Virus record (IMG/VR): IMGVR_UViG_3300045988_104662 | DNA: 40,027 bases | Source of the DNA: a virus | Strand: one strand, 5' to 3' | Shown here: positions 209 to 38,957 of the stretch, in pieces | Layout: every line of letters starts with the position of its first letter | How positions within the stretch are numbered: the first letter of the stretch is position 1 | The notes under the pieces: model-generated | Seen by the model: the letters and a program-made list of their open reading frames with translations, nothing else | The model's database searches: none | Told to the model about the DNA's origin: nothing | Program-made: the position numbers and the translations under genes

Positions 209-1486
209 GTGCGCAGGTTCGGCAAGATCGTCGTCAAACCAAACAAGACCAATCCCAAATACCTCGAGGCGTCATATCCGACCCCGGTCGAGGCGTTCGA
301 CCAATGGCCGGGACTCCCGATGCGGCAGACCACCACCTTCCCACTCACGCAGGACGGACGCGACGACGCGGCCGCATGGCTCGCCTCCGCGCGCAAGAGG
401 ATCGAGGCCGGAGTCTGGCAGCCGGAGAAGATACGCCGCAAGCAGGAGAGTGAGAAGGCCATGACCTTCGCCGAATACGTCGACAAATGGAACCTCCACC
501 GCGCGAAATCCGGCGACCTGCACGAAGCCACCAAACGCCTGTCGGAACGCTACGCCCGAATCCTCTGCCGAACCTTCGGCGACATGCCGATCAGCCGCAT
601 CAGCCACAAGGACATCCAAGCCTACTCGGACTCGCTCGTCGGTGCCGTCACGCACAACGAACGCCGGTCCAGACTTGTCTACCTCAAGCAGATCCTCACA
701 GCCGCGGCGAAACCGGACGTTGACGGACACTCCATCATCCAGCGCTCGCCATTCGACATCAAGATACCGGCGTTCCACCAAAGCGAGGGATCCGCGCCGG
801 CGACGCCAGAAGAACTCCGGATCATCCACGACGCCATGCCCGAACACCTCCGCCTCGCCATCACGCTCGCCATCGCCGCGGGAGGCCTGCGCATCGGAGA
901 GGTCTGCGGACTGCAAAGGCAGGACATCGACATCGAACGCCACACCATATCCATCCGACGCACCAGGCTCGACGACATCCCGGGCATCATCGTCGGCGAC
1001 ACGAAGACACCCGGCAGCCGCCGGACCGAACCGCTGCCGGAATCCGTCATCCCGGAAATCGAAGAACACCTCCGCAAGTGGGTCCAGGACGGACCGGAGG
1101 CATGGATCTTCCGCGACATCCGCGACCTTCGCGCCGGCCGCGGCGCTATCCCAATCACATGCAGCGGACTCAGATACCGCTTCCGCCTCGCCCGCCGCGA
1201 AGCAGGCCGCGCTGACCTCAGATTCCACGACCTGCGCGCCACGGCGCTCACCATGCTCGCGCAACAAGGCGCCACCGTCCGCGAACTCATGGCCGCCGCC
1301 GGCCACACCACACCGACCATGGCCATCCACTACCAGCGCACCACCGAAAAAAGACGGAGGGCGCTCGCCGACAAGGTGGCCTCCACGCTCGATCCGGCCA
1401 CGGCGTCGAAGGCGTCCGAGCGCGACCAGGAAATCGCCAGGCTGCGCGCGCGGCTCGCCGAACTCGAGGCGATGGGGGAGAATTAG
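209..1486 (+). CDS. int: Tyrosine-type phage integrase
   Basis: 425-aa ORF with a GTG start and an AGGAAG RBS about 7 nt upstream. Catalytic boxes present: RIGEVCGL, HDLRATALT, AGHTTPTMAIHYQ (R..HxxR..H..Y). Confidence 0.9.
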   Translation: MRRFGKIVVKPNKTNPKYLEASYPTPVEAFDQWPGLPMRQTTTFPLTQDGRDDAAAWLASARKRIEAGVWQPEKIRRKQESEKAMTFAEYVDKWNLHRAKSGDLHEATKRLSERYARILCRTFGDMPISRISHKDIQAYSDSLVGAVTHNERRSRLVYLKQILTAAAKPDVDGHSIIQRSPFDIKIPAFHQSEGSAPATPEELRIIHDAMPEHLRLAITLAIAAGGLRIGEVCGLQRQDIDIERHTISIRRTRLDDIPGIIVGDTKTPGSRRTEPLPESVIPEIEEHLRKWVQDGPEAWIFRDIRDLRAGRGAIPITCSGLRYRFRLARREAGRADLRFHDLRATALTMLAQQGATVRELMAAAGHTTPTMAIHYQRTTEKRRRALADKVASTLDPATASKASERDQEIARLRARLAELEAMGEN

Positions 1487-16558: not shown

Positions 16559-18079
16559 ATGATTCGCACCGCCGCGGACGTGAACCGTATGGCGAACCTG
16601 CTCGCCATGAAGATAGAGCAGCGACGCTCGGACATTAGGAAGCACACGGACTACGTGCGCGGCAAGCGTGGCACCCTGAAATTCGCGTCCGACGAATTCA
16701 AACGCTACATGTCGGATCGTTTCAGCGGATTCGCCGATAACTGGTGCCTGCCTGTGGCGCAGGCGCCCGTGGAACGCATCCACTTCCGAGGCTTCATCCC
16801 ATACGGCGACGTCGAACTCGACTCGCACGTGATGCGCGTGTGGGAGCGCAACGACTGCGACCGCAAACTGCAGGAGACCGCCCTGATGATGACCGCCACA
16901 GGCAGAGCCTTCGGCCTGGTCACCTCGATGCCGGACGGCAGGGCGCGCATAAGTTTCGAACACCCCGACTCGGCGGCTGTCCACTACGATCCGCTCACCG
17001 GCGAGGTCGACGCCGGCCTCCTGGTCAGATACGACGAGGAGCACGAATTCGGCACGCTGCTGCTGCCCGACGTGGTCTTCGACGTGGTGCGCGTCCGCGC
17101 GGGCGGAGACGACGAACGAGACCGTCTGCCGCCGGGCGTCGAGGGATGGATGTTCCTGCCGGACTCCGCCCGCCCGAACCCGCTCGGCCGCGTCCCACTG
17201 GTCGAATTCCGCAACCAGATGCTCCTGGACAACCTTCCCATCAGCGACGTCGAGCAGGTCGAATCCATGCAGGACGCCGTCAACGTCTGCTGGGCATACA
17301 CCTTGAACGCATTGGACTTCGCGTCCATGCCCGCGAGGGTCATCCTCGGCGGCGACAGCCTGTCCGAACCGGTGTTCGACAAGGCCACCGGAGAGCAGGT
17401 GGGCGAACGTCCCGTGAACCTCGACAAGCAGGTCATGGAGCGCATCATGCAGATCACCGGCGACAACGTGTCGATCGGCGAATGGACGGCAAGCAACCTG
17501 CAGGCCTTCCTTCCGATCATCCAGAAGGCGGTCGAGCACATCGCCGCCGAGACGCGCACGCCAGGCCATTATCTTTTGACGAACGCGGAGGTGCCCGCCA
17601 CCGGCTACGAGGTCGCCGAAGCCGGATTGGTCAGCAAGACGTTGGAGCGCATCAGCTTCATGCGCCAGCCGGTGCGTGAGCTGTGCGAGATGGCCATGAC
17701 GCTCGAGGACGACGAGCAGTCAGCGCGCATCCTCGAGGACTCCAAGGTCGTGTTCGCCACGCCGCAGTACCGCAGCGAGGCCCTCATGGCCGACGCGATG
17801 CTCAAATACAAGCGGCTCGGCTACCCGCTGCAGTGGATCGCCGAACAGATGGGCCAGAGCCCCGAGGACATCAAGCGCATCATGCGCATGATCGACGAGG
17901 AGAACAGCGACCCGGAGATGGCCGAGATAGCGCGAACCCTGCAGGTCGGAGGTGCATCTGATGACGGTGACGATGGACAGCCTGTCGGACAACCGGCACA
18001 CCCTGGCCAGACTATGCCTGCTGGCCGTGAAGGCGGCGGACAAAACATGGAAGGGCGTGGATCCGCGACGGGTGCGTGA
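16559..18079 (+). CDS. Portal protein
   Basis: 506 aa, in the position after terL. It has an acidic/Gly-rich C-terminal tail and a size typical of SPP1-type portals. Confidence 0.8.
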   Translation: MIRTAADVNRMANLLAMKIEQRRSDIRKHTDYVRGKRGTLKFASDEFKRYMSDRFSGFADNWCLPVAQAPVERIHFRGFIPYGDVELDSHVMRVWERNDCDRKLQETALMMTATGRAFGLVTSMPDGRARISFEHPDSAAVHYDPLTGEVDAGLLVRYDEEHEFGTLLLPDVVFDVVRVRAGGDDERDRLPPGVEGWMFLPDSARPNPLGRVPLVEFRNQMLLDNLPISDVEQVESMQDAVNVCWAYTLNALDFASMPARVILGGDSLSEPVFDKATGEQVGERPVNLDKQVMERIMQITGDNVSIGEWTASNLQAFLPIIQKAVEHIAAETRTPGHYLLTNAEVPATGYEVAEAGLVSKTLERISFMRQPVRELCEMAMTLEDDEQSARILEDSKVVFATPQYRSEALMADAMLKYKRLGYPLQWIAEQMGQSPEDIKRIMRMIDEENSDPEMAEIARTLQVGGASDDGDDGQPVGQPAHPGQTMPAGREGGGQNMEGRGSATGA

Positions 18080-23710: not shown

Positions 23711-24036
23711 TCGAGGACCTACGGATCTGCCGCCAGCTCGGCATCAGCTACAAGCGGTTCATGGGCTGGCGGCCGAGCAGGGGCGATGAGGTCGAATGGG
23801 ATGAGACGGAGCGTAATTGGATGCGCTCGTTGGCGGAATACGAACGCTCGTTGTGCCCACTATGCGGTTTGCCGCGCTCGATCTGCCAAGACCCGAAGGC
23901 CGAACTTACATTGCATGCCGAAACCAGCGTCTGCTGGGCCACCGCGCACATGCAGCAGGCCATGAAACGGTGGACTGATGCGAATGGCAGGGACAATCCG
24001 GCCGCGAACGCGTTGACCGCGCACCTGACCTGTTGA
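23201..24036 (+). CDS. Tail assembly chaperone, -1 frameshift-extended (GT-like) form
   Basis: The -1 frame is open from 23578 to 24036. After a slip at 23665-71 the product continues PKSGIRPRLEGSPQLVEDLRICRQLGISYKRF... Confidence 0.6.
23665..23671 (+). promoter_or_regulatory. -1 programmed frameshift slippery heptamer C CCA AAA
   Basis: In the G frame the sequence reads gaC CCA AAA gcg, an X XXY YYZ heptamer about 40 nt before the G stop, inside the overlap with the -1 ORF. Confidence 0.6.
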
Positions 24037-27000
24037 CATTTTTGGAGGATGCTTTGGCTGAGAACAAGAACATCGTCATCCGGCTGATGGCCGACACCGC
24101 CTCATATGAGGCGGCGATGACCCGCGCCGGAAGCACCGCGAAAACGGTCGCTTCGGACATGGAGAACACCGGCCGCAAGAGCGCGCTCATCACCAGCGGC
24201 CTCACCGCCGCCGGACTCGCCGCCGCCGCTTTCGGCGTCGCATCCATCAAGATGGCAGCCGACTTCGACCAGCAGATGAGCACTGTGCAGGCCAACACCG
24301 GAGCCACCGGAGCTGAACTCGACCAACTCCGCCAAGCCGCCATCGAAGCAGGCGCAAGCACCGTCTACTCCGCCAGCGAATCAGCCGACGCGATCAACGA
24401 CCTCGGCAAGGCCGGCATGAGCGTCACCGACATACTCTCCGGCGGCCTGACAGGGGCCCTCAACCTCGCCGCCTCGGACGGCATGGCCGTGGGCGACGCC
24501 GCGGAATACATGGCTAACGCATTGTCGATGTTCCACTTGTCCGGCAGCCAGGCTTCGCAGGTCGCCGACACGCTCGCCGCTGGCGCTGGCAAGGCAGTCG
24601 GCAACGTCAGCGACTTCGGAGAAGCGCTCAACAACTGCGGCGCGCAGGCCAACAGCTTCGGCATGAGCATCCAGGAGACCACCGGCGTCCTCAGCCTCTT
24701 CGCCCAGAACGGCACCATCGGCGCCGAAGCCGGCACACAATTGAACAGCATGCTCATGAAGCTCGCCGCGCCATCCAACGACGCGGCAGCCACCATGAAG
24801 GAGCTCGGCATCAGCGCATACGACGCTTCCGGCAACTTCGTCGGCATGGCCAATTTCGCCGGACAGCTGCAAAAAGCCGAGAAAAACCTCACGCAGGAAC
24901 AGCGCAACCAGGCGAATGCGACAATTTTCGGCAGCTACGCCATCAAGGCCGCCAACTACCTCTACGACGCCGGAGAGAAAGGCGTCAGGAACTGGACCAA
25001 GGCGGTATCCGAAAGCGGATACGCAGCCGAACAGGCAGCGGCAAAGAACAACAACCTCAAAGGCGACCTCGAAAACCTCTCCGGCAGCATGGAATCGCTC
25101 ATGATCTCCATCGGCGAAGGCGCGCAAGGGCCACTGCGCAAACTCGTCCAGGGGCTTGACACCCTCGTGGACTCCTTCGCCAGCCTTCCGGCCGGCGCGC
25201 AGCAGACCATCATCGTCATGGCCGCTCTCGGCGGCGTGCTCGGCGGCGTCCACAAGGCCGCAAGCAATCTCAACGGCAGCACCAGCACGATGGCCAACAA
25301 CATTGGTCTGGCCATCGACCCGATCCAGCGTATGAAAAGCGCTCTGGCCTCCGCGCAGACCGCCTTCCAGATGTTCCGTGCGAGCGGCATGAGCGCGCAG
25401 GAGCAGATGGAGGCGTTCGGCACGAGCGCCAGCAGAGCCGAACTGAAAACCGCCGGATTCAAAGCCGTCGGCAGCAGCGTCATGAGTCTGCTCGGCGGAC
25501 CGTGGGGCATCGCCCTCACCGTCGCCGGAGTGGCGCTCACCTCATTTATTGAGCGCCAGCAGAAGGCCAAGGAGGCCACCGAACAGCTCCAGTCCGCGCT
25601 TGAATCAGGCAGTGACGTCCGTAGCACCATCGCCGACTCCTACCAGAAGATGAACTTCGCCGGAGCCGACATGACGCATTGGATGGGCGAGGCAAAGGTC
25701 AGCCTGACCGACATGACCAGCGCAGCCATGGGCAACAAGGACGCGACTGACAAGGTCAACGCCGCGTTGAAGGAATACGGCAAGCAGGGCCATTCGCAGA
25801 TGGCTGTCGCGCAGAAGATGCGCGACAGCATCAAGGACGAAGCCAAGGCATACAGCGAAGCCAAGGAACAGACCAAGCAGAAGGCCGCAGCCACCAAGAA
25901 CGCCGTGGACGCCGACGGCAACGCATCGAAGGCCGCCAAGGACACCGCCAGCGCGAACAAGGACCTCGGAAGCAGCGCCAAGGACGCGGCCGAGGAAATC
26001 GACGGACTTGTCAAATCGCTCTTCGGCTTGGAATCCAACAACCTGACCGCCGACGAGGCCGTGGACCAGCTCAACCAGAAGATCGGCCAACTGTCGGACA
26101 CCTGCAAAGACAATGGTCGAGTGTTCAACGAGAACGGCGACCTGCTCGACCGATTCAGCGAGAAGGGCACAAAGACCAGGCAGGCCTTGGAGGATATCGC
26201 CAGCAGCGCGCAGAACGCTGCGGAGAAGATACTCAAGCAGGGTGAGAACACCAACTTCACCGGAGGCGAGATCGAACGCGCCAACGGCGTCCTGCAGGAT
26301 GCGCGCGAAGCCCTCATAAGGCAGGCCGAAGCTTCGGGCATGGGCGAACAGGCCGCTAACGCTTTGGCGGACCGGTGGGGTCTGAGTTCCGACAGCATCA
26401 AAGCGGCGATCGACAACATCAAGAAGACCGCCGAAGGCAACCAGCCGAAGCTCGACGTGGACGACTCCAAGGCCAAGAAGAAAACCAAGGATTCCGAGAC
26501 CAACCTCGACAAATTCAACAAGAAGGTTGCGAAAGCCAAGCTCGAAGCCGACGACAAGAAGGCCACGGACAGCGCCAAGAAGGCGCGGAAGATGATGGAC
26601 GACTTCGGCAAGAAGCACGTCAAAGGCACCATCGACGCGACCGACAAGGCATCCAAGAAGGCCAAGACCGCATCCGCGAACGTCAACAAGCTCAACGGCA
26701 AGAAGGCCACGGCCAAACTCGACGCGAAAGACAACGCGTCTCCGAAGGTCGACAAGGCCAACTCGAAGAAGCTGACCAACAAGCGCAACACCTTGGACTC
26801 CACGGACAAGGCCACGCCGAAGACGAACGCGGCCAACTCCAAGAGGCTCAAAGACAAGCGCAACACGCTCGATTCGGCCGACAAGGCCGGACCGAAGGTC
26901 GACGCCGTCAACCGCAAGAAGCTGAACGACAAGAAGAGCACCGCCTCGGTCAACGACCAGGCGACTCCGGTGCTCCGGTTCATCAACAACTTCAAGATCG

Positions 27001-27461
27001 CGGACAAGAGCTTCACCGTCACGGAGAAAACGAAGAAGGAAGGCGGTTACACAGGCGGCATGTTCACGGACGGCACCTTCCAGCAGTTCGCCGGAGGTGG
27101 CGAGTTCGTCGGCTACGTGGATCCGGCATGGGCGCCCGGCAATGGTCTGAGCGACAGCGTGTACCTGCTCAACGCTCGTCTCGCCGCGGGCGAGTACACG
27201 CACAATGCCGCGGCCACGGCCTATTACGGCGTCGATACCATGCGCCTGCTGAACGAGCGGAAGATTCCACGCGAAGTGTTTGCCACAGCCAATCAGATGA
27301 CAGGCAATCAGGTCAGCATACAGGTTGATACCGCTTCCGTGGTGGCGGCGATAACCAGCCTGCACAACGATCTTGGCGCGATCATCAGCGCCGCGTCCGA
27401 TGATTCGACGGTCGGCGATCGTGACTTGGGGAGGTTGATCCGCAGATATGCGCGAGCTTAG
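24033..27461 (+). CDS. Tape measure protein (start TTG 24033 or TTG 24054)
   Basis: About 1140 aa. Ala/Gly-rich helical N-terminus and Lys-rich repeats. GGAGGA at 24044-49 favours TTG 24054 as the start. Confidence 0.85.
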   Translation: MTFLEDALAENKNIVIRLMADTASYEAAMTRAGSTAKTVASDMENTGRKSALITSGLTAAGLAAAAFGVASIKMAADFDQQMSTVQANTGATGAELDQLRQAAIEAGASTVYSASESADAINDLGKAGMSVTDILSGGLTGALNLAASDGMAVGDAAEYMANALSMFHLSGSQASQVADTLAAGAGKAVGNVSDFGEALNNCGAQANSFGMSIQETTGVLSLFAQNGTIGAEAGTQLNSMLMKLAAPSNDAAATMKELGISAYDASGNFVGMANFAGQLQKAEKNLTQEQRNQANATIFGSYAIKAANYLYDAGEKGVRNWTKAVSESGYAAEQAAAKNNNLKGDLENLSGSMESLMISIGEGAQGPLRKLVQGLDTLVDSFASLPAGAQQTIIVMAALGGVLGGVHKAASNLNGSTSTMANNIGLAIDPIQRMKSALASAQTAFQMFRASGMSAQEQMEAFGTSASRAELKTAGFKAVGSSVMSLLGGPWGIALTVAGVALTSFIERQQKAKEATEQLQSALESGSDVRSTIADSYQKMNFAGADMTHWMGEAKVSLTDMTSAAMGNKDATDKVNAALKEYGKQGHSQMAVAQKMRDSIKDEAKAYSEAKEQTKQKAAATKNAVDADGNASKAAKDTASANKDLGSSAKDAAEEIDGLVKSLFGLESNNLTADEAVDQLNQKIGQLSDTCKDNGRVFNENGDLLDRFSEKGTKTRQALEDIASSAQNAAEKILKQGENTNFTGGEIERANGVLQDAREALIRQAEASGMGEQAANALADRWGLSSDSIKAAIDNIKKTAEGNQPKLDVDDSKAKKKTKDSETNLDKFNKKVAKAKLEADDKKATDSAKKARKMMDDFGKKHVKGTIDATDKASKKAKTASANVNKLNGKKATAKLDAKDNASPKVDKANSKKLTNKRNTLDSTDKATPKTNAANSKRLKDKRNTLDSADKAGPKVDAVNRKKLNDKKSTASVNDQATPVLRFINNFKIADKSFTVTEKTKKEGGYTGGMFTDGTFQQFAGGGEFVGYVDPAWAPGNGLSDSVYLLNARLAAGEYTHNAAATAYYGVDTMRLLNERKIPREVFATANQMTGNQVSIQVDTASVVAAITSLHNDLGAIISAASDDSTVGDRDLGRLIRRYARA
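26630..26950 (+). repeat. In-frame ~63-bp (21-aa) tandem repeats inside the tape measure gene (approximate bounds)
   Basis: Peptide units DAKDNASPKVDKANSKKLTNKRNTL / DSTDKATPKTNAANSKRLKDKRNTL / DSADKAGPKVDAVNRKKLNDKKST, with more degenerate copies upstream. Confidence 0.6.
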
Positions 27462-28302: not shown

Positions 28303-29834
28303 CGCCACGTGCGATCGTTTCGCAGGTGACGTTGGATTGGGCTTGCGGCACGGACGAAAACGACTTCGAATTGACCATCGACGATCCGGATGCGCCGGAA
28401 ATCGAACGTGGTTGGTATTTCTGGCTTGACGGCAGTGACGTGGGCGGCCGGATCATCGACCGTCGTGTGACCGTTTCCGGTGGCGTGTCCACGGCCATGT
28501 GGATCGGCCAATCGTGGACTGGCATGTTGGCGGCGAAGATATTGCAGCCGGACGCGAATCAGGATTACCTGACCGTCTCCGGCAAGCTGCCTGACATCCT
28601 TAAAAGCCTTTTGAAGCGCATCGGTTTGGATTCGGTGTTTACCGTCGATTCCTCCGATGCTTCCACTTTGTCGAATTGGATGTTCCGAAATCCACGCTAC
28701 GTGGACGCCTACACAGGATTCCGTAATCTGCTCGCATCCTGTGGCAGACGCCTCGATTTCCAAGCCAAGGATAATCGCATCCTGCTTGGCATCACGCCGG
28801 TCGGCATCATCGACAACACGATCGATTCCGACTTGGTGGACTTCAAGGCCGAAACCAACTGTCGCGCGGTGAATCATCTCATCGGCCTTGGCTCGCAGGA
28901 GCTTAAAGATCGTCTGGTGGTCAATTATTTCGCTGATGCAGCCGGTGCGGTGAGTCAGACGCAGACGCTCATTGGCGTCGATGAGGTATGCGCCACATAC
29001 GACTATTCCAACGCGGATTTGTCCACGCTGCAATCCGAGACGAAGAAACATCTGCAGGAGTTGCAGACCGGTGGTTCGGTCGAGGTGACGTTGTCCGATG
29101 AGGTCGGTGATGGTCTGCACGTGGATGACAAGATCGTCGCGACGGATCAGGCTTCCGGTGTCAATGTCACCGCCGTGGTGACGAAGCAGATTGTGAAAAT
29201 CGATTCCGGGATTTTGACTTCGACGTTCGAGGTCGGACTGCCGGTGCAGTCGGCGAATGCGAACTATTCCGGCTCTTCCTCTTCGTCTTCCGGTGGTTCG
29301 CCTGGTGGTGGCGTGTCTTTGACGGCTGGTCGTGGCCTGTCGATTTCAGGCGGCACGATAAACGCGGATGTCGATTCTGATGATTTGAATGCCGTCAGGC
29401 AGGTTGCCGAGGCGGCTAACAAGACGGCTTCCGATTACGCGGCGCAGATTGGAGCGGCGAACAAGACCGCCGAGGATGCGAAGACCGTTGCGGATGCGGC
29501 GAAGAGTGTGGCCGATGGTGCGAAGTCGGGCATGATGACCGACGGTGAACGGTCTAAGCTCGCTTCGGTCGAACGGGGCGCGAACGCTTACGCGCTGCCG
29601 AAGGCGTCCACGGACGTGTTGGGTGGCGTGAGGGTGGATGGTTCCACGATTGTGAGCGTGGACGGTGTGATAAGCGCCCATGTGAACGGTGGCTCCGGCA
29701 GTACGGGAAAGGTCGTGTTTCCAATCGGCTATGTCGTGATGAACACGACCGGTGTTGACCCTGCGGTGGATTTCGGTGGTACGTGGAGGCAGTTGCCTTC
29801 GCTTGGTTGTTCCATGTTTGAAAGGATTGGATAG
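28269..29834 (+). CDS. Tail-associated / baseplate hub protein with fibre-like C-terminus (Tal-like)
   Basis: 521 aa. TTG start with a GGGAGG RBS. Ser/Gly linker, then a coiled segment AAQIGAANKTAEDAKTVADAAKSVADGAKS. Confidence 0.6.
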   Translation: MADVILADGKLTPRAIVSQVTLDWACGTDENDFELTIDDPDAPEIERGWYFWLDGSDVGGRIIDRRVTVSGGVSTAMWIGQSWTGMLAAKILQPDANQDYLTVSGKLPDILKSLLKRIGLDSVFTVDSSDASTLSNWMFRNPRYVDAYTGFRNLLASCGRRLDFQAKDNRILLGITPVGIIDNTIDSDLVDFKAETNCRAVNHLIGLGSQELKDRLVVNYFADAAGAVSQTQTLIGVDEVCATYDYSNADLSTLQSETKKHLQELQTGGSVEVTLSDEVGDGLHVDDKIVATDQASGVNVTAVVTKQIVKIDSGILTSTFEVGLPVQSANANYSGSSSSSSGGSPGGGVSLTAGRGLSISGGTINADVDSDDLNAVRQVAEAANKTASDYAAQIGAANKTAEDAKTVADAAKSVADGAKSGMMTDGERSKLASVERGANAYALPKASTDVLGGVRVDGSTIVSVDGVISAHVNGGSGSTGKVVFPIGYVVMNTTGVDPAVDFGGTWRQLPSLGCSMFERIG

Positions 29835-30085
29835 TGAAGTCTGACGGTTACTCGAAGTACGTGTGCGACAAGTGCGGCAAGACCGCGTATGTCGCAGCTG
29901 GCGATACGGAGGCGCGTGAATGGTTCACCGTGCGCCGGTATTCCGCTGGCAAGGCGACCCGCATCGCGGATGATGTGACGCCTGACATCTACGAATTGTG
30001 CTCCCAGTGCAATGCGTCTTTCATGGCGTTCATGCAGAAGGACGACGCTTCTTTTGAAGCATGGTTGAAGGAGGCTGAACAGTGA
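29834..30085 (+). CDS. Small Zn-ribbon protein
   Basis: 83 aa with CDKC ... CSQC pairs. Confidence 0.45.
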   Translation: MKSDGYSKYVCDKCGKTAYVAAGDTEAREWFTVRRYSAGKATRIADDVTPDIYELCSQCNASFMAFMQKDDASFEAWLKEAEQ

Positions 30086-30867
30086 CCATCGAACTTGTTG
30101 ACGGCAAAGCCGGAGTCGCGCACATCTCGAGCGAGGACAAGGCGATCATCCATCAGGCCAAGTTTTCGAAGTCCGACGTGGTGTTCGACTGGGGCGACGC
30201 GTTCAAGTGTTCGATGAGTTCGCCCAACAGGGCGACGATCGGCACCGGCTGCGCGTCGATTCAAGGCTTGGACTGGCATATCACGGCGGCGGAATCCGTG
30301 ACGATCTCCAACGGGTCGCAGGGCGTGAAACGCAATGACATCATCTGCGCGCATTACCATCGAGATTCCAAGACCGGTAATGAGCTGGTGGAATTGACCG
30401 TGTTGAAGGGCACGCCGAACGCGACGACTGCCGCCGACCCGACCATTCCGTCAGGGAAGATACTGTCCGGCGCGGTTGACGCGTACATGCCGTTGTGGCG
30501 TATCCCATTGGACGGTATCACGGTCGGCACTCCGGTGCGCCTGTTCACGCCGAAGGGGGCTTTGTGGGATTCCGTAACCCAACCGTGGAAACCGCCGTAT
30601 ACGAACAACAGCCTCACGCTGTGTCGGGTCGGACGCACAGTCACGGTCAACGGCAACGTCAAGTTCACCGGCAGCGGAGTGCAGAACTACGCGATGGCGG
30701 TTGAGACCATCCCTGAAGCGTTCCGCCCACTCGCCGATCAGAGCATCATCGCGTTCCCGTCCTGCGGTTTCAGCCTGCTTGTCATGCGTGACGGGAAGGT
30801 GCAGATGCTTGGCGACCCGAAATCCGCCTACTCCACGGCGCACGGCTGCTGGATAACAGCACAGTAG
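30082..30867 (+). CDS. Receptor-binding / tail fibre protein: constant part (aa 1 to ~161) plus the currently expressed variable cassette V0
   Basis: 261 aa. Crossover site R0 lies in frame at codons W162-D-S-V-T. The C-terminal 95 aa resemble silent cassette A (IPEAFRPL...DGKVQMLGD vs LPEAYRPP...NGIIRVANM). Confidence 0.75.
   Translation: MTIELVDGKAGVAHISSEDKAIIHQAKFSKSDVVFDWGDAFKCSMSSPNRATIGTGCASIQGLDWHITAAESVTISNGSQGVKRNDIICAHYHRDSKTGNELVELTVLKGTPNATTAADPTIPSGKILSGAVDAYMPLWRIPLDGITVGTPVRLFTPKGALWDSVTQPWKPPYTNNSLTLCRVGRTVTVNGNVKFTGSGVQNYAMAVETIPEAFRPLADQSIIAFPSCGFSLLVMRDGKVQMLGDPKSAYSTAHGCWITAQ
30565..30580 (+). repeat. Shufflon site R0 (expression site): tgg gat tcc gta acc c
   Basis: Lies in frame in the RBP gene and reads W D S V T. 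It shares the 11-nt core ttccgtaaccc with R1-R3. Confidence 0.75.
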
Positions 30868-30880
30868 CTTTCCGTAACCC
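30865..30880 (+). repeat. Shufflon site R1: tag ctt tcc gta acc c
   Basis: The 16-mer is identical to R2 and to R3 on the opposite strand. Its TAG is the stop codon of the RBP gene. Confidence 0.8.
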
Positions 30881-31164
30881 TCTATAATGCCGATGGTTTC
30901 GTTGTCATCAAAGCCGGAATATTGATGCTCGTGAAGTTTAGCGGCGCGATAGGGGTCGGAAGCTGGGATGCGAAACAGTGCAAGTATGTTCTGCCGGAAG
31001 CGTATAGGCCGCCAATCGAGGTCAACAGCATGTGCTGCGTCGCGAATGGCCAGACCGCGCGAACGCTTATCGTACAGGCCAACGGTATCATCCGGGTAGC
31101 CAACATGGGATCGACTGGTAGCAGCCAAGGTTGCGTCGGAACTGTCGTATACCCAATCTGCTAG
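30881..31164 (+). other. Silent C-terminal cassette A
   Basis: Open from R1 to the TAG of R2, in the same frame as the RBP gene. No convincing RBS or start of its own. Confidence 0.7.
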
Positions 31165-31177
31165 CTTTCCGTAACCC
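31162..31177 (+). repeat. Shufflon site R2: tag ctt tcc gta acc c
   Basis: Identical 16-mer. Its TAG terminates cassette A. Confidence 0.8.
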
Positions 31178-31500
31178 TCACCAAGACGAACACTAACTGG
31201 AATGTGGATTACCGTACCGCGCTGGTCGGCAAGATGCTGATAGTCGCATTCCACGCCACACGCCTCAACTCCGACTGGAATGCTGCGAAGGAGTGGGAGA
31301 TATCCCAGCTTTTCACGCTACCAACCGGCTTGGAGGCGGCTTTCGAGGTGCATTGCGCCGCCGTGTCCAATTCCAGCGTCGGGCTGCATGGCGTCGAAGT
31401 GCAGACCGCGGGCAACGCCATCGCCCTCCGCTCGTCGGAGAAGATGACGATCGGCAAGGGCGGATGGGTCGAGGGATGCATCACGGTGCCGCTCGCCTAG
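31178..31500 (+). other. Silent C-terminal cassette B
   Basis: Open from R2 to the TAG at 31498-31500, in the same frame. No RBS. Confidence 0.7.
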
Positions 31501-31843
31501 GCGAATGTCACGCCATCTGGCACGGGGATAATCTTCGAGAAGCATTGGATGACATCGTTTGGCCCTACACCGCCGATGAGGACCACCGACCCGTCCGTGT
31601 TCCAAGTCGCCTGTTTTCCGTACGCGATGCCGGCCACATTCGCGACGCACCCCAAACTGACCGCTTTGGAGGGTTTCACACCCGATTTGAACGTCCAGAC
31701 GGTGAAGTTGCCGGTGTTCACGGCGCTTCGGAACGATGACAGGTCAACGAAGATCAGACCATCCCTGACCTTGATGGTGTTCGAAGCGCTGTAAGGCGCC
31801 GGAACGAACGAGCCGGTGGACTGCCATTGTAATTGGCACGTCT
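31497..31843 (-). other. Silent C-terminal cassette C (inverted)
   Basis: On the minus strand it is open from R3 (LSVT QTCQLQWQSTGSF...) to a TAG. It converges with cassette B at the palindrome cctagg. Confidence 0.7.
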
Positions 31844-31859
31844 GGGTTACGGAAAGCTA
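31844..31859 (-). repeat. Shufflon site R3 (inverted), abutting the recombinase stop codon
   Basis: gggttacggaaagcta is the reverse complement of tagctttccgtaaccc. It lies 1 nt from the TGA of the recombinase gene. Confidence 0.8.
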
Positions 31860-31860
31860 T

Positions 31861-32733
31861 TCAGCAGGTCAACACCAGTCGTTGCCATGCTCGCTGCATG
31901 TCCTTGAGGACGCTCAGATCAGGCTTCAAATAATACCTTGCGGTGGTCTGGATGTCGGAATGGCCGAGCTGTCGTGCGACCACGCTGATGTCGGTGCCCG
32001 CCTTGATTGCCAGCGTGCCGAACGTGTGACGCAGATTGCGTGGCGGGACAGAGGGTAGTTTCATTCGCTGGCACCATGACTTGTAACGGTTAGCGACTTG
32101 GTTCGCGTTCAGATTGCCGACCAGTCTGCCGGTCTTCGTGCCGTGCCGTAGTTCCGCCAACCGTTTGACGGCAAATCGCGGCAACGCCACGGTTCGACGG
32201 CTCAAATCGGTCTTCGGCTCGGTGACCGTCTCATGTCCTGCGACCCACTGCACGGAACGTTTGACTGTTACCGTGCCACGCCGCAGGTCAAGGTCAGACC
32301 ATTCGATGCCGACCGACTCGCAACGGCGCAAACCGGCGCATACCGACACCAACAGCCATGCTTCGAGCGGATGCCCGTAGAAGCCTTTCAACAGCTTGCG
32401 CACCTCCTGCGCCGACAACACTCGCGGCTCATAGTGACGTAGGCGGGGGAGTCTGATTTCCCTTCTGGTCACATCATTGTCCGTCATGCCGCGCCGGAAC
32501 GCGAGCCTGAGAATCGCACGGAACACGGCCCATGCTTTTCGCGCCGCTCCCGGCTTGTCGAAGGAGTCCAACCATGATTCGATGTCCGCCACCGTGATCG
32601 AGTCCAGGTCTTTTCCGCTCCATTGTGGGAGGATATGACGGTTCAGGGCGCTTTCATATCCCACTAGAGTGCATTCGCGGAGTTTCGCGCATGAGGGTTT
32701 CCAAACAGTGGATGCGAATGTGCCGAAAAGCAT
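31861..32733 (-). CDS. Shufflon-type tyrosine recombinase (Rci/Rin-like)
   Basis: ATG at 32733 with GGGAAGGA 5 nt upstream. 290 aa. Motifs AGLRRCE, NLRHTFGT, LGHSDIQTTARYY. It sits inside the tail-fibre region and is distinct from int. Confidence 0.85.
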   Translation of the reverse strand: MLFGTFASTVWKPSCAKLRECTLVGYESALNRHILPQWSGKDLDSITVADIESWLDSFDKPGAARKAWAVFRAILRLAFRRGMTDNDVTRREIRLPRLRHYEPRVLSAQEVRKLLKGFYGHPLEAWLLVSVCAGLRRCESVGIEWSDLDLRRGTVTVKRSVQWVAGHETVTEPKTDLSRRTVALPRFAVKRLAELRHGTKTGRLVGNLNANQVANRYKSWCQRMKLPSVPPRNLRHTFGTLAIKAGTDISVVARQLGHSDIQTTARYYLKPDLSVLKDMQRAWQRLVLTC

Positions 32734-32847: not shown

Positions 32848-32877
32848 AAACCCGTCGATTTCGACGGGTTTTGTTTT
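32848..32877. terminator. Hairpin plus T-run between the recombinase and the next tail gene
   Basis: aaacccgtcga-tt-tcgacgggttt is followed by tgttttt on the + strand. Confidence 0.55.
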
Positions 32878-32902
32878 TAACGCTTCTTTTAAGGAGGATG
32901 TT

Positions 32903-33301
32903 TTGACTCAGATCAAATTCGATTTCGGCCATCCGAGTGCGGATGGCATCGCCGACTTGGCCGGTGAGACGGTTCACGTGATTCCGACGAGCCGTTTCAA
33001 CAGCGGTAAGCGCATCGTGGTGCGTGACTCGTTCGAGGTGAGACTGGACGAGTATGGCACCGCGACCGTCACCGTTCCGCCGACCGATAACACGTTCGCC
33101 TACGAGGTGACCATCGGCGATAGCGCCGATTCATGGCGGTTCATTCGCGTCGTGCAGGTGCCGGATTCGACTTCGGTGTTGAATTTCTCCGATCTGGTTG
33201 AAGTTGATTCTACCACGCTCACGCCGGTGGGTACCGGCAATCCGTTGGCTGACATCGACCAGTCCGACATCGACTGGGCGTTGGCCGCCATCCGCAACTG
33301 A
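32903..33301 (+). CDS. Minor tail / fibre-associated hypothetical protein
   Basis: TTG start with AAGGAGGA 4-5 nt upstream. 132 aa. Lies directly upstream of the DGR target gene. Confidence 0.55.
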   Translation: MTQIKFDFGHPSADGIADLAGETVHVIPTSRFNSGKRIVVRDSFEVRLDEYGTATVTVPPTDNTFAYEVTIGDSADSWRFIRVVQVPDSTSVLNFSDLVEVDSTTLTPVGTGNPLADIDQSDIDWALAAIRN

Positions 33302-33314
33302 GAAAGGACAGAAA

Positions 33315-34898
33315 ATGGCAAATCCGGACAAGTTCATCCGCCTGCGCGATTTCGCGAAGATCATGCGCGCCCTGCGCGAGACCGACGTGGACGGCACGAC
33401 CTTCCATTACGACGAATCGAAGCACGAATACGCGAATGTCAAGGAGTTCTACAGTCAGCACCGCTCCGGCCGAATCTACGGCGTGCAGTTCCCTCGCTAC
33501 TCCTTCTCCCATGTGCCCACAGGCGCGAAGACCCACGACAACGCAAACCTGTCCGTGACGGTATCCACCGCCGCGAACGCCGGACGCGACGACTACGCCT
33601 ACCTCAACGCCTTCCAATGGCGCGATGTGAACGCCACCGTGGACGACTCCGGCGTGCCGCACATCACCGCCATCGAAGGGGACAGCCGATTCCGCCGCGA
33701 CGGATCCAACGGAGACGTGTTCGTCATGGTCGCGCCCGGATATTTCCGCATCGACGGAGACGACAACCACATCGAACTGCTTTACAGCGACGAGCAGTAC
33801 GACGGCTTCGAACCGATGCCGGGACTGCTCCTGCCGGACGGCACCGAACGCCCATGCCTGCTGTTCGCGAAATACGCGGCATCCCTGTCCGGCGGCATAC
33901 CGCGCTCCTGGAGCAGCCAGAAGATCGACCCCGGCTTCGGCTGCCAGAACGACCAGATCGACCTCGCCCTGAAAAAGGGCAAGGGGTACGCCGGCCAATG
34001 CCAGCCGGACGTCTTCTACTTCCAGCTGATGCTCATGCTGAAATTCGCCACCAAGGACATGGAGGCGGCGCTCGGCGGCTGCTTCGAAAACTACATGGCT
34101 CAGGGGCCGGTCACCAAGGCCGAATCCAACGCCAAACGCGTCATCATCGCCAAGGACACCGCCGACAACATCCTCGTCGGATCCACCATCAACATCGGCA
34201 CCGACAAGGAACGCAACAACAGCGGCAACCACTCCATGGCCGAGGCCCGCACCGTCCTGTCCAAGACCACCATCGACGCGACGAACGTGGCCCTCAACAT
34301 CGACGGCGCCGCCATCACCACCACGACCACCGCGTTCGTCAGCACCATGCCGTGGAAGACCGGCGCCACCGACTCCATCCGCGGCAGGGGAGACGGACGC
34401 CCGCAGGCCGACCACGCCGGATGGCAGCCGGTGCGTCTGCAGGGCATCGAACGCGGCAACGGCATCTACGAGGTCGACGCGGACGCCATCGTCAACGCCT
34501 ACAAGGACGCCGACGGCATCGGCCACACCGCCCTCTACCTCGTGCACGACATCACCAAGGCATCCAAGACCAGCACCGACAACTACACTCTCGTAGGCGA
34601 GTTTCCGACCCGCGACAAGACCAACGACTCGAGCTCGCGCTTCGCCGAGGACTTCAACGTCGTCGACGGGCGCGTGTTCCTGCCGACCGGCATCGGCGCC
34701 ACCTCCAGCACCGGCCTCACCGACGCCGTCTATGCCAATCCGGTCCAGGCACAGGGGCTCCGACAGGTGCTCCGGTTCGGCGTTCTCGGTGTTGGCTCGT
34801 TCTGCGGCGCGTTCCGCGCGTACCTGGGCAGGGACCTGTCGAGCCGCGGGTGGGACATCGGCGGCCGCCTATCCGCGCTCGGCCGCTCGAAGGCATGA
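33315..34898 (+). CDS. DGR target protein (distal tail / receptor-binding candidate) with C-terminal variable region
   Basis: ATG at 33315 with a GAAAGGA RBS. 527 aa. VR occupies the last ~40 codons: ...VLRFGVLGVGSFCGAFRAYLGRDLSSRGWDIGGRL, a C-type-lectin-like DGR VR pattern. Confidence 0.85.
   Translation: MANPDKFIRLRDFAKIMRALRETDVDGTTFHYDESKHEYANVKEFYSQHRSGRIYGVQFPRYSFSHVPTGAKTHDNANLSVTVSTAANAGRDDYAYLNAFQWRDVNATVDDSGVPHITAIEGDSRFRRDGSNGDVFVMVAPGYFRIDGDDNHIELLYSDEQYDGFEPMPGLLLPDGTERPCLLFAKYAASLSGGIPRSWSSQKIDPGFGCQNDQIDLALKKGKGYAGQCQPDVFYFQLMLMLKFATKDMEAALGGCFENYMAQGPVTKAESNAKRVIIAKDTADNILVGSTINIGTDKERNNSGNHSMAEARTVLSKTTIDATNVALNIDGAAITTTTTAFVSTMPWKTGATDSIRGRGDGRPQADHAGWQPVRLQGIERGNGIYEVDADAIVNAYKDADGIGHTALYLVHDITKASKTSTDNYTLVGEFPTRDKTNDSSSRFAEDFNVVDGRVFLPTGIGATSSTGLTDAVYANPVQAQGLRQVLRFGVLGVGSFCGAFRAYLGRDLSSRGWDIGGRLSALGRSKA
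34767..34868 (+). repeat. DGR variable repeat (VR)
   Basis: Aligns without gaps over 102 bp to 35005..35106. There are 15 mismatches, all opposite a TR adenine, and 0 mismatches at C, G or T. Confidence 0.9.
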
Positions 34899-34926
34899 GC
34901 CAAGAGCGGTGAGGGGTGAGCGCAGC

Positions 34927-34946
34927 GAGGGGGCGCAAGCCCCCTC
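34927..34946 (+). promoter_or_regulatory. GC hairpin downstream of VR (candidate DGR target-recognition stem-loop)
   Basis: gagggggc-gcaa-gccccctc: an 8-bp stem and 4-nt loop, about 60 nt after the end of VR/TR homology. No T-run follows it. Confidence 0.55.
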
Positions 34947-35004
34947 ATCGTCCCGCTGAAAAACATGTGGGACTCGGAGTGGCGCGCCTACCGTCCTTCG
35001 CGTC

Positions 35005-35106
35005 GTGCACCGGTTCGGCAATCTCAGTGATGGCTCGAACTGCGGCGCGTTCCACGCGAACCTGAACAGGGACCTGACGAACCGCAGGTGGAACATCGGC
35101 GGCCGC
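35005..35106 (+). repeat. DGR template repeat (TR)
   Basis: Contains 21 adenines, 15 of them substituted in VR. Four AAC codons and one AAT codon in the VR frame (VHRFGNLSDGSNCGAFHANLNRDLTNRRWNIGGR). Homology ends in the GC-only run cggcggccgc. Confidence 0.9.
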
Positions 35107-35280
35107 ATACCTGGACAATCCTGTCGAAAACATCAGAACACTCCGATTACCGTCGGCCACGATCTAAGCCAGACGGCATGCCACGGCCAGATCCGAAAAT
35201 GCAACACGAGCACGCGGCCGGTAGATGAACCCATCCAGCCACATCGACAGCCGCGCAAAGTCCAGATAGGAACAGCTCAA

Positions 35281-36384
35281 TTGAAAACCTACTGCCGTCA
35301 CACGCATTGCGGCACACCGGCCTTCGTCAGGAAGGCCATAGACCATTACCTGCAAGGCAAAACATCAAGACGCGACGTCACGAGATTCCTGGAACACCAC
35401 CCGGACCTCGACGACCTCGCCATCAGACTCGCCGGCCAGATCAGGACCGGCGGATTCGACCATCCACGTATCCGATACTTCAACCGTGTCGAACCGATTT
35501 CCGGCAAGCATCGCGTCATCGGCCGTGAGGCCGTCGAACAGCAGATCCTCGACCACGTCGCGGTCATCGCCCTCATGCCCTTGTTCGACGCGAAGATAGG
35601 ACGATGGCAGACCGCGAGCATCCCGGACCGCGGCACCAACGACGCACGACGTGTCATCCGCAAATGGATCCGCGAACCATCGAGCAAAGTCTTCGTCAAA
35701 CTCGATGTGCGCAAATGCTATCCATCGATTGATCGGCCGACGCTCAAGGCGATGCTCTCGCACGACGTCGGCGACATGACGCTCCTGCGCCTCGTCTTCC
35801 ACCTCATCGACTCCTACGCCGGCGATAACGGCCTGAACATCGGCAGCTACCTCAGCCAATACCTGGCGAATTATTACCTGTCGTCCATCTGGCACTTCTG
35901 CGAGCACGGACTCACCAAAACCAGACGGCACAGGGACGGCACCACCACGAAGCGAAGGCTCGTCACCCACGTCCTCTTCTACATGGACGACATCCTGCTG
36001 CTCGGACGCTCGAAACGCGACCTGTCGATCGCGGCAAGACGCATCACCACCTTCGCGCACGACCGGCTCAAACTCGACATGCACCCCGAATGGAACGTCA
36101 AGCACGTCGGCATCGAACCAATCGACATGGTCGGCTACACGTTCCGGCCCGGCCGGACGAACATCAGACCCGGCATATTCCTGCGAGCCGGACGGACCTT
36201 CGCCAGATTCCGCCGACACCCAAGGAACCTGACACTGGCGCGCAGATGCGCCAGCTACTACGGATACTTCATCCACTCCGACTCGACGCTCGTGCGCCGC
36301 CGCCGGCAGGTGGACAAGACAATGCGCATGGCCAAGCGGACGCTGGCCCGCGCCAACCAACAACCAAGGAAGGAAAAAAGATGA
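35281..36384 (+). CDS. DGR reverse transcriptase (start uncertain; TTG 35281 proposed)
   Basis: Motifs LDVRKCYPSID, NIGSYLSQYLANYYL (the DGR-typical [ILV]GxxxSQ), FYMDDILLLG, IDMVGYTF. There is no in-frame ATG or GTG before the RT motifs. TTG 35281 has AGGAA about 8 nt upstream. Confidence 0.85.
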   Translation: MKTYCRHTHCGTPAFVRKAIDHYLQGKTSRRDVTRFLEHHPDLDDLAIRLAGQIRTGGFDHPRIRYFNRVEPISGKHRVIGREAVEQQILDHVAVIALMPLFDAKIGRWQTASIPDRGTNDARRVIRKWIREPSSKVFVKLDVRKCYPSIDRPTLKAMLSHDVGDMTLLRLVFHLIDSYAGDNGLNIGSYLSQYLANYYLSSIWHFCEHGLTKTRRHRDGTTTKRRLVTHVLFYMDDILLLGRSKRDLSIAARRITTFAHDRLKLDMHPEWNVKHVGIEPIDMVGYTFRPGRTNIRPGIFLRAGRTFARFRRHPRNLTLARRCASYYGYFIHSDSTLVRRRRQVDKTMRMAKRTLARANQQPRKEKR

Positions 36385-37400: not shown

Positions 37401-38639
37401 ATGCGCAAGCACAAGCCTCCGTGGCTCAAACGAATCCGGCTGGCGGTGACCGGCGTGGTCATGGCCATCACCATGGCCGTAGCGCCCGCCGCGATGGCCG
37501 ACCTGAACGGATACGACGTATCCGGCTACCAGGCCCCGGACATCACGCAGGTCGCTCCGGCCGACTTCGCGATCGTCAAGGTCAACCAGGGCTGGTACAT
37601 CAACTCCAGCTGGGGCCAGCAAGCATCCGGCGCCGTCAACACCGGCAAGGAGCTAGGCCTGTACGATTACGCGTCCGGAATGGACGCCACGACCGAAGCC
37701 GACAACTTCGTCAACCACATCACCGGATACGTCGGCAAGGCCATGCTCGTCCTCGACTGGGAGCCATATCAGAACGCCGCGTGGGGCAACAGCAACTGGG
37801 TGCGGACGTGGGTATACCGCGTCCACGCCAGGACGGGAGTGTGGCCCGTCGTCTACTGCTCCAAGGGCTTCGTCGACCAGATACCGGCGGACGTCCGAGC
37901 CAAGTGCATGCTGTGGGCGGCGCAGTACGCCAACAACTACGCGACCGGCTACCAGGACTCCCCATGGCTCGCCGGATCGCAGGGCGAAGGCATGCTCCAG
38001 TACACGAGCACTGGCTACCTCAACGGACATGGACCGCTCGACCTCGACAAATTCTTCGGAGACAGGACGGCATGGCGCAAGATCGCCTGCGGCGAACGCG
38101 CCGGCTGCTCCACCACCGGAGGATCCACCGGCACGCCGAACGTCCACGTGGAGAAGCGGACGACCAACACCACCGACCTGAACGCCATGGCCACCGCCGT
38201 CATCCGCGGCGATTACGGCAACGGCGCCGATCGGCAGTCCCGTCTCGGCGACAACTACCAGGCGGTGATGAACATCGTCAACAGCCGCCTGTCCGGTTCG
38301 ACGTACTCCGGCCCGACCACCGTGACCCGCACGACGACCCGCACCTACGTGGTCCGCTCCGGCGACACCGTGTCGGCCATCGCCGAGCGCACCGGCCTCA
38401 AGCCGGCCTCCGCATGGCGCGTGCCGTCCGGCAACATCAACCGGATCTACGTCGGCCAGACGATCACCTACTACGGCTCGTCCACCGTCTCCACGCCGTC
38501 CACGACCTACTCGTCCACGCACGTGGTCAGCGCAGGCGAGAGCCTGTGGAAGATCTACGGATCCGGCTGGTACGCCGCGGCCCAGCGCAACGGCCTCCGT
38601 CCGCCGTACACCATCTATCCAGGCCAGCGGCTCCGCTGA
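37401..38639 (+). CDS. Endolysin: signal peptide, GH25 muramidase, CW_7-like repeat, two LysM-like repeats
   Basis: N-terminus MRKHKPPWLKRIRLAVTGVVMAITMAVAPAAMA/DL. GH25-like segment GYDVSGYQ...FAIVKVNQG...LGLYDYA. LNAMATAVIRGDYGNGADRQSRLG. YVVRSGDTVSAIAERTG and HVVSAGESLWKIYG. Confidence 0.8.
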   Translation: MRKHKPPWLKRIRLAVTGVVMAITMAVAPAAMADLNGYDVSGYQAPDITQVAPADFAIVKVNQGWYINSSWGQQASGAVNTGKELGLYDYASGMDATTEADNFVNHITGYVGKAMLVLDWEPYQNAAWGNSNWVRTWVYRVHARTGVWPVVYCSKGFVDQIPADVRAKCMLWAAQYANNYATGYQDSPWLAGSQGEGMLQYTSTGYLNGHGPLDLDKFFGDRTAWRKIACGERAGCSTTGGSTGTPNVHVEKRTTNTTDLNAMATAVIRGDYGNGADRQSRLGDNYQAVMNIVNSRLSGSTYSGPTTVTRTTTRTYVVRSGDTVSAIAERTGLKPASAWRVPSGNINRIYVGQTITYYGSSTVSTPSTTYSSTHVVSAGESLWKIYGSGWYAAAQRNGLRPPYTIYPGQRLR

Positions 38640-38705: not shown

Positions 38706-38957
38706 ATGGACAAGGACACCAAGACTGAGCTCGACTATCTGCTGCCCGACAAGGCATACGAGATCCTCAAGTGGGTCGCGCTGATCGCCCTGCCGGCCGT
38801 CGCATGGCTGGTCGGCGCGGTCGGCCCGCAGTGGGGACTGCCTCACTGCGGCGAGATCGTCACGACCATCAACGCCGTCGGCGTTTTCGTCGGCGCTCTG
38901 ATCGGCGTGAGCCAGCTCACGGCCACCAAGCCGGACGATGATTCCGACAAAGATTAA
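38706..38957 (+). CDS. Holin
   Basis: 83 aa with an AAAGGAGGTG RBS. Two TM helices and a charged C-terminus (KPDDDSDKD). Adjacent to the lysin. Confidence 0.7.
   Translation: MDKDTKTELDYLLPDKAYEILKWVALIALPAVAWLVGAVGPQWGLPHCGEIVTTINAVGVFVGALIGVSQLTATKPDDDSDKD

Follow-up and report, generated by a model that had tools for sequence, protein, structure and literature searches.

Does the prophage captured in the IMG/VR virus record IMGVR_UViG_3300045988_104662 carry a switch that exchanges the C-terminal domain of its receptor-binding protein, and is this switch in use? Bifidobacteria are key gut commensals for which plaque-forming phages are very hard to find, and one of the reasons proposed for the scarcity of plaque-forming bifidophages is the variability of their receptor-binding proteins. 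In the 40,027-nucleotide (nt) stretch of this record that was analyzed here (hereafter, the window), which comprises almost the whole prophage, the gene for the receptor-binding protein (Rc-V) is followed by three more open segments, by direct and inverted copies of a short repeat, and by a gene for a tyrosine recombinase (rin). A preliminary description made from the sequence had interpreted this locus as a shufflon, in which inversion of DNA segments would join alternative C-terminal cassettes to a constant N-terminal part. Comparison of the window with its relatives leads us to the conclusion that the locus is very probably a Rin-type shufflon, that is, a multiple-inversion switch of the C-terminal domain of the receptor-binding protein.

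The preliminary description reported four copies of an 11-nt core, three direct and one inverted. A scan of the window matched all these positions, locating the core, TTCCGTAACCC, at 30570, 30870, and 31167 on the plus strand and at 31844 on the minus strand; further copies are absent from the 40-kb window even when one mismatch is tolerated. The four observed copies compare with a chance expectation of 0.31, and none of 100 shuffled sequences attains four. These sites are denoted here rix R0 to R3. R0 (30570..30580, plus strand) consists of the core alone and lies within the expressed gene, where the core is read in the frame t-tcc-gta-acc-c and encodes (D)SVT. R1 (30865..30880, plus strand) consists of the stop codon TAG, CT, and the 11-nt core; R2 occupies 31162..31177 on the plus strand; and R3 (31844..31859, minus strand), the sole inverted site, adjoins the recombinase gene. 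The last three sites had been said to share a 16-mer, and TAGCTTTCCGTAACCC is found at all three (30865, 31162, and, inverted, 31844-31859), with R1 and R2 having as many as 18 nt in common.

The conservation of the sites was assessed in two sets of relatives from IMG/VR. A scan with the constant part of the protein, 163 amino acids (aa), as the query detected 168 relatives, of which 80 were retrieved, and a second scan, with rin as the query, gave a second set of 80 loci (individual loci are referred to by L numbers below). Nearly all relatives in the first set have the same core, in 1 to 7 copies, and the second set includes up to 8. Among the 159 sites of relatives other than R0, 10 of the 11 core positions are invariant, wobble bases included; the variable one is position 5, where 155 sites have G and 4 have C. 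The logo of these 159 sites, a-TAG-(c/t)-(t/a)-TTCCGTAACCC, includes an in-frame TAG before the core, with variable outer flanks. At the R3 sites of the relatives, the flank on the rin side is constant, whereas the cassette on the opposite side is variable.

Each core leads into an open segment, put at about 95-115 codons in the preliminary description and measured here at 97-118 codons in the frame set by the core. The first of these, cassette V0 (30581..30867, plus strand, 98 open codons, cluster type 1), is the one that is now expressed as the C-terminus; as stated previously, it forms the 3′ end of a 261-aa gene, in agreement with the open reading frame (ORF) at 30082..30867 on the plus strand. 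The constant N-terminal part of this gene, Rc, spans 163 codons (30082..30569, plus strand), with a GTG start and AAGGAGG upstream. The silent cassettes A (30881..31164, 97 open codons, type 7) and B (31178..31500, 110 open codons, type 6) are located on the plus strand, and cassette C (31497..31843, 118 open codons, type 2) is located on the minus strand, tail-to-tail with B. The convergence of B and C, already recognized in the preliminary description, is manifest in their stop codons, which overlap in CTAG at 31497-31500. Fused to Rc, cassettes A, B, and C are predicted to yield proteins of 260, 273, and 281 aa, respectively. The cassettes of the relatives show the same organization: in the frame defined by the core, 202 of the 204 complete cassettes have 87 or more open codons (median, 102), and the 204 cassettes form 25 types when clustered at 70% identity. 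Two of the earlier statements on the cassettes need correction. V0 and A were called recognizably homologous, which is too strong given that the similarity is marginal (a BLASTP comparison of the two sequences aligns 27 aa at 37% identity, with an E value of 0.019). The statement that A, B, and C lack starts of their own holds for the 5′ ends, where none is found in any cassette; it does not hold for their interiors, all three of which contain in-frame TTG or GTG codons.

The internal TTG and GTG codons, along with the deposited annotation of Bifidobacterium phage PMBT6, in which the cassettes are called separate hypothetical proteins, could be taken to mean that the cassettes are independent small tail genes which share an N-terminal SVT motif, the repeat being retained for coding reasons. 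We find this hardly credible because the core is invariant at synonymous positions over the 159 sites, one copy is inverted and adjoins a recombinase gene, an in-frame TAG directly precedes each internal site, and identical cassettes are fused to Rc in relatives, each junction falling precisely on the core. Invariance at synonymous sites, together with these junctions, was also the ground for rejecting the view that the repeat is a protein-motif artefact.

These fusions were found by comparing the window, with its reference arrangement V0> A> B> <C, to close relatives, among them near-identical phages from other metagenomes of the human gut, in which the same cassettes are arranged differently. 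In L002 (Rc 99% identical at the aa level, rin 99.9% at the nt level), the order is A> V0> C> <B, with a 100% identical V0 in the second slot. In L099, a 371-kb human-gut contig that is 99.85% identical to the window over 8.6 kb upstream, it is B> <C <V0 <A, with V0 100% identical and inverted; and in L085, it is C> <B <V0 <A, with V0 (inverted), A, B, and rin 100% identical and C 99.4% identical. Other loci provide single fusions: L088, 99.8% identical over 14.4 kb upstream, encodes Rc-A, after which the contig ends; L102 (Rc 99.8% identical, nt) encodes Rc-B; and L094 and L096 (Rc 95-97% identical, nt) encode Rc-C. Cassette A is also fused to Rc in L002/L087, cassette C in L085, and cassette B, at 100% cassette identity, in L099, L102, and L098. 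Thus, all four predicted fusions occur in nature, those of V0, A, and B on a backbone that is at least 99.8% identical, which bears out the expectation that four alternative C-termini are accessible. The product anticipated for an inversion between R0 and R3, in which …ALWDSVT is followed by QTCQLQW…, is present as the exact junction in L094, where it translates to ALWDSVTQTCQLQW, and in L096.

The breakpoints of these rearrangements coincide with the sites. In every comparison, the rearranged blocks of homology have in common precisely the 11-16 nt of a rix site, and between the window and L002, L085, and L099, the overlap consists of exactly the 11 nt of R0. Enumeration shows that inversions between opposite sites can reach 12 states from the window order, of the 384 possible signed orders; L002, L099, and L085 are all within these 12 states, at 3, 2, and 3 inversion steps from the window, respectively. 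Moreover, the plus sites precede all minus sites in each of the 55 multi-site loci of the first set and in every multi-site locus listed for the second set. Because this order is preserved by inversion between opposite sites, the observed pattern matches inversions alone. An exact-match scan of IMG/VR for the Rc-B junction produced no match; the degenerate-pattern scan of metagenomes did find Rc-B. A scan of species-representative genomes yielded only two contigs, both from Bifidobacterium metagenome-assembled genomes and both cut at R0.

Truncation at this point is common. Among 82 related contigs, 26 end 7-141 nt past R0, and eight of these end inside the core or at its last base, whereas for contig ends distributed uniformly along a phage of 30-40 kb, fewer than one would be expected in this interval (this expectation is our estimate and not a computed control). 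Many contigs also end just past other rix sites, and many of the rin-anchored contigs end at the rin-proximal site. The breaks at rix appear to be the assembly signature of a population that contains several arrangements.

Is the shufflon of the window still active? It might descend from an active Rin shufflon and no longer switch, in which case the differences in arrangement would be old and fixed. The evidence for switching in the window is comparative, and the sets of relatives include apparent remnants, namely, L047, with one cassette and a partial rin, L019, with only a rin fragment, and L037/L155, with two direct sites and no detectable inverted site; in these lineages, the shufflons evidently decay. 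The window, however, has four perfect cores, open cassettes, and a full-length rin with every catalytic residue, and the arrangements differ even between backbones with 99.8-99.85% identity, which implies that the switches are recent. Taking into account also the very high rate of contig breaks at rix sites, we consider a frozen state of this locus improbable.

Some further observations on arrangements and cassettes among the relatives are worth recording. Two related prophages, L016 and L018, are located 42.4 kb apart in one region of an isolate genome (IMGVR_UViG_2877182016_000001). Upstream, the two prophages diverge; in the tail region, their identity is about 99.2%, and the shufflon segments, although 99.8-100% identical, differ in order (3> <2 <5 <0 in one and 0> 5> 3> <2 in the other, where the numbers denote cassette types). 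In L007/L089 (IMGVR_UViG_3300014512_000006), direct rix sites at 5489 and 5562 are only 73 nt apart, and Rc is fused to a 21-codon stub, which might represent a truncated or "off" form of the gene, or else a scar left by a deletion. Finally, tail-to-tail pairs without a rix between the members recur, with types 6/2 in the window and 2/3, 3/5, 1/2, and 0/6 in other lineages. Such a pair is not separable by inversion at rix and yet differs between lineages, so that some other process must also reassort the cassettes.

The candidate catalyst of the inversions is the product of rin (31861..32733, minus strand), a XerD-like tyrosine recombinase of 290 aa and the presumed invertase, the ORF of which ends one base from the inverted 16-mer of R3. 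The start at 32733 agrees with the usual length of the homologues and is accompanied by a GGAAGG ribosome-binding site. The preliminary description had noted a second tyrosine recombinase adjoining the inverted site, an assignment that is borne out by matches to the Pfam family Phage_integrase (PF00589, 7e-17), together with a SAM-like N-terminal domain and no arm-binding domain, to PHROG 1 "integrase" (5e-48), and to XerD, the best match in PDB (1a0p, 1e-10). The residues R136, K174, R235/H236, H258, and Y267/Y268 are invariant in 21 Rin homologues, down to 54% identity. The possibility that rin is the prophage integrase is ruled out by the presence of a separate integrase of the lambda-Int type (209..1486, 425 aa) at the prophage end; the two proteins are 25% identical over 161 aa.

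Rin catalysis is deduced from adjacency only, and a second bifidophage inversion locus described by Mavrich et al. (2018, PMC6109161) has no adjacent recombinase. Conceivably, then, the inversions are real and are catalyzed by the phage integrase, the host XerC/D, or general homologous recombination, with Rin performing another role. Against this stands the position of rin: wherever the sequence of a relative extends to this region, rin adjoins the last of the inverted sites, and this holds in three lineages of Rc, with aa identities of about 40%, about 72%, and at least 87%. Furthermore, the phage integrase belongs to the lambda-Int type and is only 25% identical to Rin. As for general recombination, it is textbook knowledge that a repeat of 11-16 nt is too short for efficient RecA-dependent recombination. 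Catalysis by another enzyme thus seems very unlikely, and Rin would be the recombinase that acts on the rix sites.

With regard to the expression of rin, a consensus scan for its promoter gave nothing above background. Just past the shufflon-rin block, at 32848..32880 on the plus strand, there is a consensus match to a strong terminator-like hairpin, with a 10-bp stem followed by TGTTTTT, which would halt transcripts of the tail operon that continue beyond the cassettes in the direction antisense to rin. If this hairpin halts read-through, the next tail gene (TTG start at 32904, AAGGAGG upstream) would need a promoter of its own.

The identification of the target as a receptor-binding protein comes from its relatives. 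A search of 1.8 billion representative proteins detected 3,489 relatives of the Rc-V protein, and it is matched by more than 2,000 protein clusters at 90% identity. Most of the matches among the 3,489 relatives stop at residue 155-170, which is the fusion point; likewise, PHROGs 13141, 9994, and 25635 match residues 1-167 of Rc-V0 only. A profile built from 102 diverse relatives matches a protein of solved structure, a 261-aa "receptor-binding protein" (PDB chain 30yz_W), with an E value of 8.6e-8, and some relatives of Rc-V have H-type lectin, Gp10_C, or Gp53-like C-termini. Pfam contains no family for the Rc-V0 protein, and searches of the PDB sequences with the single Rc-V0 sequence and with shallow profiles returned only noise. 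The AlphaFold2 model of Rc-V0 (predicted local distance difference test score, pLDDT, 29; predicted template modeling score, pTM, 0.18) is unusable, the underlying alignment consisting of 30 homologues all at least 90% identical. It appears reasonable to name Rc-V the receptor-binding gene, the specificity of the variants being presumed only.

The observed sites, reading frames, cassettes, natural rearrangements with breakpoints at the core, and four fusions can be combined in the following scheme. Transcription and translation would start only at Rc (30082), which alone has both a ribosome-binding site and a start codon, and the reading frame would pass through the first rix core, read as SVT, into whichever cassette lies downstream, with translation ending at the TAG ahead of every other rix; the other three cassettes, each lacking a start at its 5′ end, would for this reason be silent. 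Rin would bring together a plus site and a minus site, and strand exchange within their asymmetric 11-nt cores would invert the intervening DNA. A single step, between R0 and R3, would produce Rc-C, and further steps would give Rc-B and Rc-A. Having no site between them, B and C would move as one two-faced segment, tail to tail. The lysogen or virion population would then be a mix of four variants (260-281 aa) with presumably different host ranges. Under this scheme, the rate of switching in this prophage would be appreciable, and the variants would bind different receptors.

Several points weigh against this scheme. The case for switching in this prophage comes from the comparison of relatives, not from reads, and from the differences between samples, it follows that rearrangement took place in the course of evolution, not at what rate it proceeds. 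The contig breaks could stem from several co-existing strains, each with a fixed arrangement. That Rin, rather than the phage integrase or the host XerC/D, is the catalyst has been reached by inference. Nothing visible in the locus prevents deletion between the three direct sites, and the occurrence of relatives with 1-8 cassettes indicates that cassette loss and gain do occur. Finally, the receptor specificity of the variants is a presumption, and the structural model (pLDDT 29) is unusable.

The preliminary description had pointed to a resemblance to shufflons of bifidobacterial prophages, and the shared architecture indeed identifies the locus with the Rin system of Mavrich et al. (2018, Sci Rep 8:12772, PMC6109161), which was described in the dnaJ2-integrated Bifidobacterium prophages Bb423phi1, Bl157phi1, and Bl30698phi1. 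In the published system, an Rc of about 168 residues is combined with Rv cassettes of 95-100 residues, an 11-bp rix, TTCCCTAACCC, stands ahead of each Rv and directly after the expressed gene, the invertase is XerD-like and distinct from the integrase, and inversions at rix were seen in reads of both virion and lysogen DNA of Bb423phi1 (PMC6109161). The window has all the same elements: an Rc in the tail module that ends in a rix; tandem and inverted cassettes, each behind an 11-bp asymmetric rix, with R1 directly after the TAG of V0; an armless XerD-like tyrosine invertase beside the cassettes, separate from the phage integrase; and inversions at rix, demonstrated in this case by comparative evidence, with the same backbone found in four arrangements or fusions. 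The differences are few. The cores differ in 1 of 11 bases (G at position 5 of TTCCGTAACCC vs C in TTCCCTAACCC), the window has four cassettes compared to five in Bb423phi1, and the cassette sets differ. The window also has a diversity-generating retroelement (DGR) 2 kb downstream, whereas none is mentioned in PMC6109161. The host, too, is probably different from that of the published Rin prophages, judging from the closest named homologues, those from B. pseudocatenulatum, B. adolescentis, and B. longum. Two loci, serving as proxies for the Bb423phi1 proteins, link the window to the published system: L066 from IMG/VR, where the published core is combined with an Rc that shares 93% identity with that of the window, and L084, a B. 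longum prophage located beside dnaJ, the core of which is of the G type and the rin of which matches that of the window at 84% identity over the full 290 aa (tblastn). It is therefore well supported that the window represents a new example of the already described Rin shufflon rather than a new mechanism, and this shufflon occurs very frequently in prophages of Bifidobacterium.

Among deposited phages, the closest is the aforementioned PMBT6 (L001, MH444512, positions 29704-32100 of the record), a sequenced B. thermophilum phage that contains Rc, three TTCCGTAACCC sites, and a rin that is 87% identical at the aa level and 84% at the nt level; its shufflon is annotated only as hypothetical proteins and an "integrase." Outside Bifidobacterium, a Rin shufflon has been reported in clade 1 prophages of Eggerthella lenta, where a tyrosine recombinase is likewise located beside small Rv genes and a larger Rc, and the arrangement varies between prophages (PMC8778435). 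This system, which is likened to that of the window by description only, belongs to a host of another actinobacterial class, and its Rv proteins have H-type lectin domains; furthermore, shufflon and DGRs are found there in separate prophage clades, in contrast to the single phage analyzed here, which has both.

Two better-known classes of inversion systems are similar to this one in outline. The R64/IncI shufflon, found on a conjugative plasmid of Enterobacteria, consists of the recombinase Rci, 19-bp sfx sites, and the pilV gene for the tip adhesin of the type IV pilus. As in the window, a dedicated adjacent tyrosine recombinase and multiple asymmetric sites are involved, only inversions take place, and the C-terminus of a surface adhesin is swapped. 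Membership in the R64-type Rci class was nevertheless rejected on account of the sites and the target: the 11-16-nt site bears no relation to sfx in sequence, and a tail protein encoded in a prophage takes the place of the pilus adhesin as the target. The second class includes Gin of phage Mu, Cin of phage P1, and Min of p15B, the latter being also a multi-segment shufflon (PMC6109161); here, too, the C-terminal portion of a protein by which the phage recognizes its host is exchanged through inversion. The recombinase of the window, which matches tyrosine-recombinase families only (PF00589) and not the serine/resolvase ones, does not belong to this class, where the chemistry and the sites are different, and the control of directionality is presumably different as well.

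The shufflon occupies the end of the tail module, where the genes for the tape-measure protein (24033..27461), a Dit-like protein (284 aa, in the Dit position between the tape-measure and minor tail proteins), the minor tail protein (521 aa, PHROG 538), and an 83-aa protein, directly before Rc-V, precede the target gene. Elsewhere in the prophage are the genes for the portal protein (16559..18079), a GH25/LysM lysin (37401..38639), and a Dp-1-type holin (38706..38957), and additional tail genes lie between rin and the lysin gene. No tRNA gene that could serve as an attachment site is present within the window. The named homologues of the encoded proteins come from B. pseudocatenulatum, B. adolescentis, and B. 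longum.

The DGR is a classic one, located in the same tail module as the shufflon, at 33312-36384 of the window. Its variable repeat (VR, 34767-34871) lies at the 3′ end of a gene for a tail protein of approximately 528-566 aa (PHROG 5302 "tail protein," 1e-20), and its template repeat (TR, 35005-35109) is followed by a reverse transcriptase (ORF 35005..36384; Pfam RVT_1; PHROG 1423 at 6e-77). VR and TR, 105 nt each, are 85% identical, and all 16 mismatches are at TR adenines. Of 40 relatives with rin, at least 16 also encode the reverse transcriptase. DGRs that target tail genes are already known from prophages of B. longum; a description of a single phage with both Rin and a DGR was not encountered in our search of the literature.

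A second feature of the right arm emerged from the comparison of Rc lineages. In L085/L105 (IMGVR_UViG_3300045988_062358), the identity to the window is 100% for three of the cassettes (V0, A, and B), rin, and the adjoining 1 kb, 99.4% for C, and 99.5% for the downstream 3.3 kb, compared to only about 41-42% for Rc (aa) and 37% for Dit and Tal; the shared sequence starts within 18 nt at R0. Similarly, L104/L107 share with the window an Rc that is 90% identical (nt), B and C that are 99.5% identical, and a 100% identical rin. The jump in identity at the rix sites suggests that arms are exchanged there. We raise, tentatively and with more doubt than confidence, the possibility that rix sites are exchange points at which whole right arms (the cassettes, rin, and the DGR-bearing tail genes) pass between otherwise unrelated bifidophages, possibly through the action of Rin on co-resident genomes. 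An assembly chimera retains a residual probability as the source of these jumps. These two extras, the combination of Rin with a DGR in one tail module and the identity jumps at rix, go beyond the literature searched.

The window itself adds little to the mechanism published in 2018. What the comparative data add is that the system is widespread and in active use, with 168 contigs in IMG/VR that encode a relative of Rc, no fewer than 25 types of cassette, and as many as 8 cassettes in one phage, and that near-identical phages in different people have different cassettes in the expressed position. The collection of arrangements also constitutes a natural data set for the question of how an armless tyrosine recombinase favors inversion over deletion, which was raised by Mavrich et al. 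as well (PMC6109161). If the exchange of right arms is real, the locus, together with the adjacent DGR, would be a portable host-range module with two layers of diversification. Quite apart from such exchange, host range in these phages would rest on the choice of the cassette joined to Rc combined with DGR-mediated mutagenesis of the neighboring tail protein.

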